IMG/VR virus record: IMGVR_UViG_3300045988_046501
Span: 1 to 5,733 of that record
Direction: 5' to 3' (one strand)
Length of the DNA: 5,733 nt
Source: a virus
In this document: in pieces, positions 1,096-5,733 of the stretch
Position numbering within the stretch: the first letter of the stretch is position 1
How the letters are laid out: each line of letters starts with the position of its first letter
Notes under the pieces: generated by a model
Database searches by the model: none
The model's input: the letters and a program-made list of their open reading frames with translations, nothing else
What the model was told of the DNA's origin: nothing
Translations under genes and position numbers: made by a program

Positions 1096-2778
1096 TTAAA
1101 TCGTTTCCAGGCCCGGGATGCTGTAGATCGGGAGAGGTCTTGTCCACGTCTGGTCGAAGTAGAAGTTGCAGATGAATTGATGGCTGTTGGAGCTCTGAAC
1201 TGCCAATGTTCGGTCGATGTTTGTTTTATTTTCTGTTATCCATCTTCCGCTTAGTTTTGGCAGCTCGTTGTATTTGTCCGCATAGTGCCATGCATCCAGT
1301 GTCTGTGCGTAGGTGCTGCGCATTTCGCTCGTTACCATGTTTGTGCGGTACCTGTAATCGGCCCAGGCTTCCTGGTAGCCAAAAACCTCTTCATCTTGTG
1401 CGGTTCCCTGTGCATAGATTTCCTGATTTAAAACGGCTTGTTCGCCCAGGTTTGCCAGCATTGGGTCATAGTAGCTGAATCTGGTGCTCCGCGTCCACAT
1501 TCGCGCAAGGCCTTGCTGATAGCTGTGTTCTACTCGTACTGCCGCCAGTCCAATGATGAATCCATGTTCTGTTGCCGAATAGGTGCACATGTTTCTGGAC
1601 ATGGTTGTCATACTGTATGCGCCGGTGTTGCCCTGCGGACTTGTGCTGTCTGTGCTGGAGGTCTGCACTACCTGATTGATGTTGATTGGCAGTCTGTATC
1701 CGCCAATGTATTCGCTTCGGTCGAGTCTTGCATCCGGCGAGGTGACCCCCCAGGCCCCCTGTAAGATTTCTTTGTACCTGGTGCCGGTTCTGGCATCTCG
1801 TTCCAGAATATGTTGTACTGCGATTGCTTGTCTGAGTTCGTTGATGGTTGTGCTTGTGGTATTGCTCAGATCTGCGCCGATGTAAGTTGTTTTGGTTGGG
1901 TTAATATTCCCTTGTTCTACGAAATTATAGTCGTCTTTTGCTTTTCCAATCAGCCTGCTTTGGAATTTTTGGATATCATCAAGGTCGAAATGTTGCTGAA
2001 GTTCTGCTTCTGTGTCTCCCCATGTCCATGGCGAGTAGTATATTTCTGGTTTTCCGATTGCGGCCGCTTGTTTTGTCATTTCTTTATCAGTGTATGTTCT
2101 GATTGGTGCGTTGCCTGTCAGTGGCAGCGTCACTGCTTCGCCTTTTTGAGGGCTCGGCAGGCAGCTTGTGAAGTAGTCTTTATATTTGGTTACTTTTAAG
2201 ACTTGTCCGCCTCTTTCCGGTGAATTTAGCCCGTCACTATCTTCGTTTGCTCCGTCCGTTGTTTCGTCTCCTGTGCTCATTGGCCGTGGTTCGCTAAGAT
2301 TTTCGTCTCTGAACCACTCATTCCAGATTTTTGTGTATGCTCGTAACGGTAGGCTGTTTACTTCTATGTTTTCAACGCCTGTCGGGATTCCGAAGTAATC
2401 AGCGACAGTTCCGACCTTCCATCCGCCTTTCGGTGCTTTGGTTTTCGGAGTCGTGTACTCTATGGGTTCCGCCCAGTAACTGCTGTCGTTCTGTCCCATG
2501 AGGTTTTCAAAGTGATCCCACAGCAGACGTGACGGCACGAAGAAGAAGTAGAAGTCGCAGTTGCAGTTATCCATGACCGGATAGAGTGGTGTACTCATTC
2601 TCATGAGTGCGTTCATGCTGATTTTTGCGGTATCGCCCGGCAAAACTTCATCACAGTAGATTGGCACCAGATCGCCCTCGTTGATTGTCGTCAGCAGGTT
2701 AAAATCTCGTTTGAATCGTGATCTCCGGATTTCTGCTCGTGGCACTTGTGCATAGTGCTGTTCGCTGTTTCGATTCAT
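1096..2778 (-). CDS. VP1 major capsid protein (Microviridae F-protein family), 560 aa
   Basis: Characteristic blocks are present: RSRFKRDFNLLTTINEGDLVPIYCDEVLPGDT, DFYFFFVPSRLLW, INELRQAIAVQHILERDARTGTRYKEIL, QVVQTSST, EHGFIIGLAAVR..YQQG, LANLGEQAVLNQEIY and FGYQEAWADYRY. The SD is AAAGGAG. The ATG overlaps the VP3 stop (ATGA). Confidence 0.97.
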   Translation of the reverse strand: MNRNSEQHYAQVPRAEIRRSRFKRDFNLLTTINEGDLVPIYCDEVLPGDTAKISMNALMRMSTPLYPVMDNCNCDFYFFFVPSRLLWDHFENLMGQNDSSYWAEPIEYTTPKTKAPKGGWKVGTVADYFGIPTGVENIEVNSLPLRAYTKIWNEWFRDENLSEPRPMSTGDETTDGANEDSDGLNSPERGGQVLKVTKYKDYFTSCLPSPQKGEAVTLPLTGNAPIRTYTDKEMTKQAAAIGKPEIYYSPWTWGDTEAELQQHFDLDDIQKFQSRLIGKAKDDYNFVEQGNINPTKTTYIGADLSNTTSTTINELRQAIAVQHILERDARTGTRYKEILQGAWGVTSPDARLDRSEYIGGYRLPININQVVQTSSTDSTSPQGNTGAYSMTTMSRNMCTYSATEHGFIIGLAAVRVEHSYQQGLARMWTRSTRFSYYDPMLANLGEQAVLNQEIYAQGTAQDEEVFGYQEAWADYRYRTNMVTSEMRSTYAQTLDAWHYADKYNELPKLSGRWITENKTNIDRTLAVQSSNSHQFICNFYFDQTWTRPLPIYSIPGLETI

Positions 2779-3269
2779 TTATTTTCTCCTTTTTGCACAT
2801 CTTTTTCCGTTGCTGCAGCGGTTTCTTTTTGTGCATTTTGCTGTTTTTCAAAGCCCATGGCTTTCATCCAGTTTTCATCACCTGCGGTTGCTGCCCACTT
2901 TTCAAAGGACATTCCGAACGCTGCCCGGATGTTGAGCGGCAGTTTTTCGAATTTTTCTCGCTGTTCGTTCATGAGGTTCATGAATTCGGTGTAGCTGCTC
3001 GGTAGCTTGCTGGTGTCGATGTACCAGCCCGGTTTTGCAAGGGCAGTCTGATCTCCGGCTGCGTATCGGCTGAGGATGCTCATAATGTCGCATTCATCCC
3101 GGTAACTCTGGATTTTTTCATAGACGTTTACTTCGCCCACTTTTTCGAGATAGGCTACGCCTCGTTCATCATACCGCTCCTTATACTGCGGTTCCATGAT
3201 GCTGCCTGGATCGTTGAACAGCGCTGGCGGTTTTTCGTCTTCGTATGGTTTAAAGATTCTTACTGCCAT
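2775..3269 (-). CDS. VP3-like internal scaffolding protein, 164 aa
   Basis: The size, acidic and helical character, and motifs typical of gokushovirus VP3 (YEKIQSYRDECDI..IL.RYAAGD and FEKLPLNIRAAF) all fit. The SD is AAAGGAG. Translation appears coupled to VP1 through a 4-nt overlap. Confidence 0.8.
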   Translation of the reverse strand: MAVRIFKPYEDEKPPALFNDPGSIMEPQYKERYDERGVAYLEKVGEVNVYEKIQSYRDECDIMSILSRYAAGDQTALAKPGWYIDTSKLPSSYTEFMNLMNEQREKFEKLPLNIRAAFGMSFEKWAATAGDENWMKAMGFEKQQNAQKETAAATEKDVQKGENK

Positions 3270-3513
3270 TTTCCTGCTCCTTTTTCATGATTTCGAGGTT
3301 ATAGACCATCTCCGGCATTCCGTTCGGCACGATTTGGCCGCTTTCGTTGTCGTACTGGGCCATCAGATAGACTCGTTTGTCTTCCGTGTCGCTCTTTTCC
3401 ATCTCCTGTGCCATCCACTTAAAGGTGCGTGCTGCCACCTTTTCGTTGACTACCATCAGATTGCCGAAAGTCCCGGCCAGTTCGTCTTTTACTGCATATA
3501 CCTGAAAAATCAT
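3250..3513 (-). CDS. VP5-like small non-structural protein, 87 aa
   Basis: The N-terminal pattern MIFQVYAVKDELAGTFGNLMVVNEKVAARTF and the later YLMAQYDNESGQIVP resemble, from memory, the conserved ~85-aa gokushovirus ORF5 family. The SD GGAG lies 8 nt upstream. The gene overlaps the VP3 start by 20 nt. Confidence 0.55.
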   Translation of the reverse strand: MIFQVYAVKDELAGTFGNLMVVNEKVAARTFKWMAQEMEKSDTEDKRVYLMAQYDNESGQIVPNGMPEMVYNLEIMKKEQENGSKNL

Positions 3514-3755: not shown

Positions 3756-4139
3756 TTATACCCCCTTTCTGTAAAAGTCTTTTCTTACATCGACATGCAC
3801 AAAGTTTGTGTATAAGATCACTCCTCCGTGTGTGCCGAGGATTTCACTTGCTGTCTGAGCTACTTTTCGAGGACTTACATTTTTCACCCAGATGTCCGCT
3901 GCCATTCCGGCCAGGTGGTAGCTGTAAGCTTTTCCGCCTACTTTTTCATTCCATTTTTCGGTTCTGAACCCTGAGTTGATGTGCAGTACTCCGAGTCTGT
4001 TTCGGATTTCCTGCAGCAGCTCTGCCAGTTCATCTGCTATCAGCACAAGATCGCTGCCATCTTTACAGGCATATTCCCTGACCTTGAAATTTTCTGTCAC
4101 TTGTCCGTTTCTGTCGTTGTGCATTCTGTAGATTTTCAC
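3756..4139 (-). CDS. Zinc D,D- or L,D-peptidoglycan peptidase, Peptidase_M15 (M15A/M15_3, LAS-fold) family, 127 aa; a putative endolysin
   Basis: The family signature is readable: FKVREYACKDG ... INSGFRTEKWNEKVGGKAYSYHLAGMAADI (H-x6-D zinc ligands) ... FVHVDVR (third His, then Asp). The start is GTG at 4139, with GGGGGA 8 nt upstream. The nearby ATG at 4141 is immediately followed by TGA. There is no signal peptide, transmembrane segment or wall-binding domain. Confidence 0.85.
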   Translation of the reverse strand: MKIYRMHNDRNGQVTENFKVREYACKDGSDLVLIADELAELLQEIRNRLGVLHINSGFRTEKWNEKVGGKAYSYHLAGMAADIWVKNVSPRKVAQTASEILGTHGGVILYTNFVHVDVRKDFYRKGV

Positions 4140-4296: not shown

Positions 4297-5406
4297 TTAT
4301 ATTTCGTCTCTTATCAGTTTTTTGAATTTGTCTTGAATTAGTTGATTTTCCTTGTTATAATATTCCTGTAGGGTTAAGCCGTTGTTCTGTTTGAGCTTAG
4401 CGAAGAGTGCGTCATTTGCGAGTTTACGACGCTTTCTTTTTATCGCTTTAAGTTCATCGGACTCGGCTTTTTCTGTTATCAGCTCAATATCTTCTACTTC
4501 TGATTTCGAGAGTGGTTTTTTCAGACATTGTGCATCATACAGCTTGTCGAAATATCGTGGTGGTTTGCACACTTTCCCATTTTTCAGTTGAATCTTGTCG
4601 TTTTCGTAGATTTCCTTGCTGTGTTCTTCAAAATATCTCGCTCCAATTGCTGGTCTTTTGCTCATGTTGCATTTTTCTGGCAGAATTCCGAGCTCGTTAT
4701 AAAATTCTTTGCCCTCCTTTCCGTATACCTTTTTTGTGGTGTATCTGGCTGTGTATGCCATTGCTTTCCATTCTGCTGGAGCAATGACAACATAACCCAA
4801 ACCCCACAATTTTGTAATCCAATCGACGTTGTAATATACAGCGCCGTTTTTCTTTTTGTAGATCTTCAACTCTTCATTTTTTATCGGTAAATCGTAAACT
4901 ATTGCATGATAATGTGGCCTGTGTGTTTTTCCACCGTATTCACCACATTGAAAGTACATCAGTTGACCGCAGTTTTTTTCATGGTATCTGATGTGATCTC
5001 TGAGCCGTTTCCAAAATTTTTGCATGTCATCATACTTGAGCGAGTAGTTTTCGGTGTAGATTTCGCCTGTTTCCTCGTTCCATACTGCTCGAAGTGGTAC
5101 ATGCTCTTCATCGTATGTCAAGGTGATGAACCATGCATTTTTATGATACGGCAATTCTAATTCCATTCGGTTTGCCCAGCTGCTTGCTGCTGCCATTTTG
5201 CAAGCCGGACAGTGTCCACATGGTAGTAGCTGTGCATCCTGGTTCTTCAGCTGCTCTTTGATTTTTTTCTCGTTCCTGGCTTGAGTCTTTTTGTCTGCGT
5301 TCTGGTTCAAGAATAAGCCTGTGTGTTCTATGTACCCTTTCAGGCTGACTATGCGGTATTCTCCGCTTTTGGTCGGTACTCTTATGAGTGGTCTTGTACA
5401 TGCCAT
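4297..5406 (-). CDS. VP4 replication initiation protein (HUH rolling-circle endonuclease, phiX174 A-protein superfamily), 369 aa from the ATG
   Basis: Motifs present: LPCGHCPACK, motif 1 FITLTY, motif 2 RPHYHAIVY (HUH), and motif 3 AYTARYTTKK (two catalytic tyrosines, Y-x3-Y). I chose the ATG at 5406 (MACTRPL..., a typical VP4 N-terminus) over the TTG at 5442 used by the ORF track. GGAGGAGG lies 14 nt upstream of that ATG. Confidence 0.93.
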   Translation of the reverse strand: MACTRPLIRVPTKSGEYRIVSLKGYIEHTGLFLNQNADKKTQARNEKKIKEQLKNQDAQLLPCGHCPACKMAAASSWANRMELELPYHKNAWFITLTYDEEHVPLRAVWNEETGEIYTENYSLKYDDMQKFWKRLRDHIRYHEKNCGQLMYFQCGEYGGKTHRPHYHAIVYDLPIKNEELKIYKKKNGAVYYNVDWITKLWGLGYVVIAPAEWKAMAYTARYTTKKVYGKEGKEFYNELGILPEKCNMSKRPAIGARYFEEHSKEIYENDKIQLKNGKVCKPPRYFDKLYDAQCLKKPLSKSEVEDIELITEKAESDELKAIKRKRRKLANDALFAKLKQNNGLTLQEYYNKENQLIQDKFKKLIRDEI

Positions 5407-5429
5407 ATTGTTTCGTTGCACCTCCTCCC

Positions 5430-5472
5430 CAATGGGCCCCAATAACTCTCTTGATGTTATTGGGGCCCATTG
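5430..5472. repeat. Perfect 17-bp inverted repeat with a 9-nt loop: CAATGGGCCCCAATAAC-tctcttgat-GTTATTGGGGCCCATTG
   Basis: The arms are 5430-5446 and 5456-5472, with no mismatch. Each arm contains GGGCCC. On the coding strand the stem ends exactly where the Rep SD (GGGAGGAGG) begins. Confidence 0.9.
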
Positions 5473-5553
5473 ACAGAAAATTTAGCTCTTGCCCAAAAAA
5501 ACCTATGGACAGATGTTGCAGAACTGGACGGGTCTCCCCGGCCATGTTCGTTT

Positions 5554-5721
5554 CTAGTCCTGCAAGCCCATTGTTTCTGCATACATGTTGATAGCGTCCC
5601 GGATTATATCACTTTCGGTATATCGTGTATTTTCCAGAGTACATGCCTTGATGTGTTCTAGTGATTTGATTTCTTTCTCTGTTAGGTTGATGTTTATTCG
5701 TTTGACTATTTGACTTCTCAT
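5554..5721 (-). CDS. Ribbon-helix-helix (CopG/Arc/MetJ-type) DNA-binding protein, 55 aa. It is not in the ORF track and is intact only across the circular junction.
   Basis: My hand translation gives MRSQIVKRININLTEKEIKSLEHIKACTLENTRYTESDIIRDAINMYAETMGLQD*. The layout is a classic RHH: a basic N-terminal beta-strand with alternating polar residues (KRININL), helix A (TEKEIKSLEHIKA), a turn, then helix B (ESDIIRDAINMY). AGGAGG lies 6 nt before the ATG at 5721, and the TAG stop is at 5556->5554. Confidence 0.65.
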   Translation of the reverse strand: MRSQIVKRININLTEKEIKSLEHIKACTLENTRYTESDIIRDAINMYAETMGLQD

Positions 5722-5733
5722 GTTGTTCCTCCT
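5593..5733. repeat. Second copy of the 141-nt terminal redundancy
   Basis: Identical to 1-141. Confidence 0.95.

Follow-up and report, generated by a model that had tools for sequence, protein, structure and literature searches.

What purpose might a perfect inverted repeat serve just upstream of the replication gene of a microvirus? The question arises at positions 5430 to 5472 of a 5,733-nt stretch of viral DNA (IMG/VR record IMGVR_UViG_3300045988_046501; "the window" denotes this whole stretch), where a sequence-only reading had proposed three functions that need not exclude one another: a nick-site or origin hairpin for the HUH-type Rep, a symmetric operator for a dimeric ribbon-helix-helix (RHH) protein, or an mRNA structure tuning Rep translation. 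To our knowledge, the origin of replication has never been mapped in the Gokushovirinae, a large subfamily. The comparisons described here indicate that the palindrome is most likely the replication-origin hairpin of the phage, running opposite in direction to all of its genes.

Genome and genes of the window

The window contains a complete circular genome of 5592 nt (positions 1 to 141 are identical to 5593 to 5733) and is a gokushovirus-type microvirus. The minus strand carries every gene: the VP2 pilot protein (199 to 1083), the VP1 capsid protein (1096 to 2778), the VP3 scaffold protein (2775 to 3269), VP5 (3250 to 3513), an M15 peptidase (3756 to 4139), VP4/Rep (4297 to 5406), and a 55-aa RHH-like gene (5554 to 5721) whose match to RHH_1 lies just under the cut-off (E 6.4e-4). 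Rep is a phiX-A-type HUH endonuclease (PF23343; phrog_942, 1.4e-94); its HUH motif reads HYHAIV and its two-tyrosine motif AYTARYTTKK, compared with HFHAVH and FYVAKYVNKK in phiX174 protein A, so that HUH and YxxxYxxKK are common to both. A perfect consensus promoter (TTGACA-17-TATAAT) occupies 170 to 198 on the minus strand, reading from 198 to 170 on the coding strand, and drives the RHH gene and probably Rep as well. The nearest GenBank records are pig and human gut gokushoviruses with 73 to 76% nucleotide identity, and the clade to which the window belongs is abundant in the pig and human gut.

A 134-aa open reading frame (5141 to 5545, minus strand) runs through the palindrome and overlaps the 5' end of Rep in another frame. 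With no match in Pfam or PHROG, and with its frame broken in relatives by an indel beside the hairpin, it is unlikely to be a gene. GenBank record MG945186 annotates a shorter overlapping "hypothetical protein" within the 5' end of VP4.

A perfect hairpin adjoining the Rep ribosome-binding site

The arms of the palindrome (5430 to 5446 and 5456 to 5472, 17 nt each) are 100% complementary, without a mismatch, and enclose a 9-nt loop (5447 to 5455) that reads TCTCTTGAT on the plus strand, with CTTG at 5450 to 5453. The description of a mismatch-free repeat far above chance expectation was thus accurate: about 6e-6 perfect hairpins with loops of 3 to 20 nt are expected in 5.6 kb (5592 x 18 x 4^-17). 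As DNA, the 54-nt element has folding z scores of -8.7 and -8.0 on its two strands, and no shuffle folds as well; the 171-nt region gives -5.1 and -5.8. The Rep Shine-Dalgarno sequence, GGGAGGAGG, abuts the hairpin as originally described, following the 3' arm directly on the coding strand (5429 to 5421, minus strand), with 14 nt to the ATG at 5406, an unusually long spacing. The 21 to 23 nt from hairpin to Rep ATG (5407 to 5429) read GGAGGTGCAACGAAACAATATG in the window and GGAAAGGCGCAGCGAAACTATATG in relatives and are nearly invariant, a degree of conservation that exceeds the need of a Shine-Dalgarno sequence alone.

Two familiar kinds of element were considered and rejected. An intrinsic terminator does not fit: a search of both strands gave none, the stem is followed on the coding strand by GGGAGGAGG and on the opposite strand by ACAGAAAAT, and there is no U-tract. 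The dif sites of XerCD have a 6- to 8-bp centre flanked by 11-bp arms; the palindrome has 9 nt between 17-bp arms, and its loop motif is phiX-like. In Rfam 15, no family matches the palindrome, the only match being a 21-bit chance match to an miRNA model with a gathering score of 75.

Further conserved DNA lies between the hairpin and the RHH gene. A non-coding block at 5495 to 5519 (GCAACATCTGTCCATAGGTTTTTTT on the coding strand, given also as GCAACATYTRTCCATAGGTTTTTTT) is highly conserved even where the RHH gene has diverged. A small GC-rich hairpin with the core CGGG-GAGA-CCCG follows the RHH stop codon (5521 to 5549) and shows compensatory changes in relatives; in loci L004 and L005 it has a mismatch that is A.C on the coding strand and G.T on the plus strand. 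Both the block and this hairpin, with its GAGA loop, are conserved better than the RHH gene and might serve as an origin for the complementary strand or as an accessory region for Rep binding.

The loop is conserved while the stem covaries

We compared the VP4-upstream regions of relatives, as the sequence-only reading had suggested, using 16 IMG/VR loci found by Rep similarity, 4 GenBank genomes, and 80 further loci with a Rep alignment. These searches were blind to the hairpin, none being conditioned on its presence. About 50 related gut gokushoviruses share the palindrome upstream of Rep, and every relative with upstream sequence (Rep identity, 48 to 95%) has a hairpin 19 to 31 nt before the Rep ATG. 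The stems of the relatives differ completely yet always pair (e.g., GGGCCCCAATAAC, CTAGCCCCTATAAC, GGGGGGAATAGAC, and GGGGGGAAATGT; further divergent but paired stems are CAATGGGCCCCAATAAC, CAGTGGGCCCCTATAAC, CACCTAGCCCCTATAAC, AGTAAGCCCCTATAAG, AGTGGGGGGAATAGAC, and CACTGGGGGGAAATGT), whereas the loop, which reads (A/G)TCAAGA(G/A)G on the coding strand, is almost invariant. The stem-loop is therefore conserved, and the stem is kept by compensatory changes. The intergenic region as a whole shows higher conservation than the adjoining RHH gene. Conservation of the loop together with covariation of the stem suggests a structured nucleic-acid signal that a sequence-specific protein would read.

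Two details of the earlier description do not extend to the relatives. The hexamer AATAAC, which had been thought phiX-like, is stem sequence and varies (TATAAC, ATAGAC, and AAATGT), and of 20 close relatives only 2 carry the second copy of the tandem ATTGGGG beside the hairpin.

The palindrome is an inverted copy of a gokushovirus module

In relatives with 30 to 40% Rep identity a hairpin is again found upstream of Rep, with a loop that is the reverse complement on the coding strand. Examples from the coding strand are ACCTCTCTTGATGTAAT (L103), GTCTCTTGATGTAA (L100), and TCTCTACTTGATTTATAAT (L115), each then followed by TGACACC. Classical isolates carry the same arrangement on the coding strand: CTAGCGTATAACAG-tctacttgat-CTGTTATACGCTAG-GTGATAG in Chp2 and TGGGGCATAT-attacttgttata-ATATGCCCCA-TTGACG in SpV4. 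The non-coding strand of the window, CAATAAC-TCTCTTGAT-GTTATTGGGGCCCATTGACAG, matches this coding-strand module of distant gokushoviruses, and the palindrome is thus the same module, inverted. The box TGACAC lies about 20 nt downstream of the loop CTTG in the gokushovirus module; its counterpart in the window is TGACA on the plus strand (5471 to 5475), where most gokushoviruses have TGACAC(C).

An alignment of 43 modules from sense-oriented genomes, from which the clade of the window was excluded, has as invariant columns CTTG (C31 T32 T33 G34) and T51 G52, with A53, C54, and A55 at 90% or more. Its 11-bp helix is 80.5% paired, compared to 59.7% in shuffles, with 102 double-change cells versus 34 and a covariation of 0.507 versus 0.172; none of 500 shuffles reached these values, and slid controls scored 0.09 to 0.14. 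A covariance model built from this alignment (R1) matched positions 5419 to 5490 of the window, i.e., the whole origin-like module with the hairpin and both flanks, on the plus strand, antisense to the genes, with 34.6 bits (E 9.5e-8); the minus (coding) strand gave 6.3 bits (E 0.75). All 22 sampled loci from the clade of the window match antisense, with 31 to 49 bits. Sense matches were obtained in Chp2 (2892 to 2962, 30.5 bits), phiMH2K (3284 to 3354, 28.9 bits), and SpV4 (496 to 565, 26.0 bits). The window and the classical gokushoviruses (Chp2, SpV4, and phiMH2K) have in common an intergenic location, a covarying stem, a loop containing CTTG, and a TGA(C/T)A flank, and in Chp2 and phiMH2K the module also lies upstream of Rep. 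The palindrome is, then, an inverted copy of a module common to the Gokushovirinae: it has a compensated stem of at least about 10 bp and carries CTTG and TGACA(C) on the same strand, and it departs from the module elsewhere in lying off the usual coding strand.

The distance from module to Rep start ranges from about 20 to several hundred nt, and in one genome (L119) the module is downstream of Rep. Sense-oriented sister genomes carry the module in the same slot between VP2 and Rep as the window does. In a circle, inverting a 60-bp module is topologically the same as inverting all the genes. The RHH gene is specific to one clade, and the clade that gained it is the clade with the inverted module.

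Likeness to the origin of phiX174

The sequence-only reading had given the phiX174 origin core correctly, as the phiX174 record confirms: the record gives CAACTTG|ATATTAATAAC with the nick annotated at 4306, and the origin there reads CAACTTG|ATATTAATAACACTATAGACCAC with the nick at 4305/4306. The hexamer CTTGAT is indeed common to the phiX174 origin core and to the plus (non-coding) strand of the window (5450 to 5455). It had been regarded as a hint only, on account of its strand; from the comparisons above, this non-coding-strand hexamer is the central conserved feature and not a coincidence. Both the 30-nt origin of phiX174 and the gokushovirus module combine a CTTGAT core with a GAC(A/C)AC box 17 to 20 nt past the cut; GACA lies 19 nt after the predicted nick in the window, and GACCAC lies 17 nt after the nick in phiX174. 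Over the decamer, TCTCTTG|ATG of the window is identical to CAACTTG|ATA of phiX174 at 7 of 10 positions. Model R1 finds no match in phiX174, so the link to the phiX174 origin rests on the short motif and its spacing. A second CTTGATGT octamer occurs on the plus strand at 5647 to 5654 (equal to 55 to 62), in the region of the RHH gene and outside any hairpin; the predicted cleavage core is thus not unique on that strand.

The settings of the two elements differ. The phiX174 origin forms no hairpin and is embedded in the coding strand of the Rep gene, whereas the module in the window is intergenic, presents its motif in the loop of a 17-bp hairpin, and is on the non-coding strand. In this respect it resembles the CRESS-DNA viruses and the rolling-circle plasmids pT181 and pMV158, in which an HUH Rep cuts a hairpin loop beside its own gene, as we propose here, although the Rep family and the loop motif of those systems differ from those of the window.

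Module orientation and strand composition

How often is the module inverted? A pattern survey of viral contigs with CTTGATGTWA...TGACAC returned 62 microvirus contigs, 58 with the module on the coding strand, as in the classical gokushoviruses, and 4 with it antisense (two from the clade of the window, plus L164 and L196). Relatives of L196 and L164 included many more antisense genomes. We then assembled 120 contigs of 3.9 to 6.5 kb with a full VP1, assigned module orientation by nhmmer (the covariance model agreed in 43 of 43 cases), and recorded the base composition of 4-fold degenerate sites, read on the coding strand. The resulting fraction of antisense genomes, 47 of 120, overstates their frequency, as the set was partly chosen by following antisense lineages; the survey figure is 4 of 62.

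Among the 47 antisense genomes, A exceeded T at 4-fold sites in 97.9%, with a median T/(A+T) of 0.20; among the 73 sense genomes, A exceeded T in 21.9%, and the median was 0.72. On the CTTGAT strand, antisense and sense genomes alike are rich in T; the T-rich strand thus goes with the module rather than with the genes. The window itself has A 0.46, C 0.25, G 0.21, and T 0.08 on the coding strand, and hence T 0.46 and A 0.08 on the CTTGAT strand, close to the virion strand of phiX174 (T 0.56, A 0.10); the synonymous sites of the window are T-rich on the CTTGAT strand, as are those of phiX174 on the virion strand. The 4-fold T content of SpV4 is 0.66 and that of Chp2 is 0.50. Cardinale and Duffy (2011; PMC3278643) document a preference of ssDNA phages for NNT codons, which is ascribed to C-to-T pressure on the single-stranded DNA.

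Composition by itself was discarded as a marker of orientation, since A-rich genomes with sense modules exist, and we therefore adopted phylogenetic contrasts. In a maximum-likelihood tree of VP1 from the 120 genomes, orientation changed at least 8 times. Because a binary sign test on this tree had too little power (median p 0.125), we used quantitative contrasts: T/(A+T) of each antisense lineage was compared with that of its nearest sense relatives (n = 8). The clade of the window (31 tips) has a median of 0.21 versus 0.86 to 0.89 in L207, L282, and L161, although the node joining it to these sense sisters has low support (35). The L164 clade (8 tips) has 0.16 to 0.20 versus 0.78 to 0.92 in 9 sense tips. 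Four smaller antisense lineages differ in the same direction: L303 (0.26 versus 0.72 in L183), L265 (0.24 versus 0.80 in L264), L196 and L256 (0.19 and 0.24 versus 0.78 to 0.82 in L262 and L177), and L260 (0.39 versus a median of 0.60 in 5 sense tips). L312 shows no shift (0.64 versus 0.56 to 0.73 in L198, L152, and L275), and L298 and L299 (0.39 and 0.33) differ from L189 (0.24) in the opposite direction. Thus, 6 of the 8 contrasts shift as predicted, by -0.21 to -0.65 (Wilcoxon signed-rank test on all 8, two-sided p = 0.039). With exceptions, the strand that is rich in T at synonymous sites can be predicted from module orientation, and these mutation patterns suggest that the phage group to which the window belongs packages the non-coding strand.

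The exceptions are of two kinds. In phiMH2K (L136), L189, L273, L309, and L311, the module is on the coding strand and yet A exceeds T, so that the composition rule fails; T/(A+T) is 0.34 in phiMH2K (A 0.44, T 0.23, G 0.08), 0.24 in L189, 0.32 in L273, and 0.25 in L311. L189 may be a recent flip back, as 3 of its 4 nearest relatives are antisense. Conversely, L312 carries an antisense module (32.7 bits) with a T/(A+T) like that of its sense relatives and may be a recent inversion or an assembly artifact. Four contigs, L164 (8974 nt), L297 (8803 nt), L290, and L313, each hold a pair of microvirus genomes in head-to-tail order that are related without being identical, with one antisense and one sense module in L297; assembly has probably joined strains that occur together, and these double-genome contigs were left out of the tree.

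Folding does not separate the two strands of the perfect hairpin in the window, each forming it equally well (-20.4 and -20.6 kcal/mol). Reading 147 distinct hairpins on the CTTGAT strand, we counted 12 internal G.T wobbles and 3 A.C mismatches (binomial p = 0.035); within the clade of the window the counts are 3 and 1. This excess speaks modestly for selection of the structure on the CTTGAT strand, which in the clade of the window is not the mRNA strand.

A candidate origin that would direct packaging of the antisense strand

We propose that the palindrome is a viral-strand (rolling-circle) origin in which a hairpin or cruciform would present the Rep cleavage sequence CTCTTG/AT in its loop. 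With the TGACA box about 20 nt past the loop, the module would be the gokushovirus counterpart of the 30-nt origin of phiX174. By analogy with phiX174 CAACTTG/ATA, we infer that Rep (VP4) would nick the plus strand between G5453 and A5454. Since the module is inverted relative to all genes, the circle displaced and packaged after a nick on that strand would be the complement of the mRNAs, and the virion would carry antisense ssDNA. A parallel exists in the CRESS-DNA viruses, in which the orientation of the origin relative to the open reading frames differs between genera (circovirus and cyclovirus) and defines the packaged strand. Judging from the conserved motif, its spacing, and the composition data, we consider it fairly probable that the palindrome is the Rep nick-site hairpin, with the predicted cut at G5453/A5454 on the plus strand, and that the clade packages the antisense strand. 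Of the three functions first suggested for the palindrome, an origin or nick-site hairpin for the HUH Rep is thus the best supported, but it holds on the strand that the sequence-only reading had set aside. For the subfamily, we lean toward the view that gokushoviruses have inverted the origin repeatedly (at least 8 times in 120 genomes), that whole clades are negative sense, with virions carrying the template strand, and that synonymous composition tracks the packaged strand.

The antisense strand would still be packaged if the nick were elsewhere and the module were some other single-strand signal, such as a complementary-strand origin or a hairpin for primosome or RNA polymerase entry. A complementary-strand origin would account for the coupling of orientation to composition just as well; this coupling and the G.T bias need only the CTTGAT strand to exist as ssDNA, and a published study (PMC9865509) describes hairpins beside Rep in reekeekee- and roodoodoo-microviruses, with identical loops and compensatory stem substitutions, which it reads as potential sites for initiating the negative strand, without settling on a function. 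Those hairpins belong to other clades and have sequences different from that of the window, and neither a nick-site motif nor an analysis of strand orientation is reported there. Against such a signal, the invariant loop CTTG(AT) and the GAC(A/C)AC box fit the known layout of cleavage and binding in phiX174, and it is because of this match in motif and spacing that we rank a complementary-strand origin second. Known single-strand origins are, moreover, usually larger, and we know of no account in which their primary sequence is conserved between phages of hosts as far apart as Chlamydia, Spiroplasma, and gut Firmicutes. We regard this explanation as unlikely.

Alternatively, the module might be a Rep site or cruciform that acts at the level of the duplex and works in either orientation; the coding strand would then still be packaged, and A-rich codons would have arisen from, e.g., host codon usage or selection on mRNA. 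Sense-module genomes that are also A-rich (phiMH2K, L117, L185, L189, L273, and L311) show that A-richness can arise without inversion. However, at each of six independent inversions T/(A+T) is much lower than in the nearest sense relatives, a nick site is by nature strand specific, and the loop and flank are asymmetric and strictly conserved. On balance, a duplex-level site seems to us rather improbable.

It is very unlikely, in our estimation, that the hairpin works in the RHH-Rep mRNA as a stabilizer, a processing site, or a modulator of translation from the Rep Shine-Dalgarno sequence. It will form in the transcript, since neither a consensus promoter nor an intrinsic terminator was found in 5300 to 5733 and none separates RHH from Rep; it abuts the Shine-Dalgarno sequence in the clade of the window, and the RNA fold has a z score of -5.1. 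Because the DNA module has the opposite orientation in most gokushoviruses, however, the RNA loop there would be the complement. Outside the clade the distance to Rep varies, and the L119 module is downstream of its Rep gene. In the mRNA the stem mismatches are A.C, the non-coding strand having G.T at these places, and the element has neither a U-tract nor an Rfam family. The specific switch that had been suggested, in which the 5' arm pairs with an alternative ATTGGGG, is not supported either: the second copy is found in 2 of 20 relatives, and the loop sequence is conserved in the opposite orientation in other clades, so that the RNA would differ.

Perfect dyad symmetry next to the RHH gene recalls CopG-RepB cassettes, but an operator for the dimeric RHH protein encoded just upstream, another of the functions first suggested, is barely credible: RHH homologues, sought with a profile of the RHH proteins of the clade, occur in 31 of 31 genomes from the clade of the window and in 0 of 89 other module-bearing genomes, so the module long predates the RHH gene; the RHH proteins have diverged strongly, the loop has not; and half-sites free to vary by compensation around an invariant, asymmetric center are the opposite of a dimer operator, to which a conserved loop on a covarying stem is ill fitting.

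Implications for the Microviridae

Microviridae are the textbook positive-sense ssDNA phages. In the literature searched, which did not extend to the original Chp2, SpV4, and phiMH2K papers (these could mention hairpins), we found no mapped gokushovirus nick site or origin, no account of hairpin orientation or antisense packaging, and no description of orientation variants in Microviridae. Of the claims made here, that the virion strand of the window is antisense is one that we infer from the orientation of the module and from synonymous composition.

The hairpin with its CTTG/AT loop and TGACAC box provides a concrete, testable candidate origin for the subfamily, and a single covariance model finds the module in the classical isolates as well as in hundreds of genomes from metagenomes. 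Should the packaged strand be set by module orientation, polarity would be a variable and repeatedly switched trait within Microviridae. Methods for codon usage analysis and host prediction in ssDNA phages would then have to take account of the packaged strand, and strand-aware virome libraries could both test and annotate polarity. The repeated inversions would also offer a natural experiment on the effect of single-strandedness on mutation bias.
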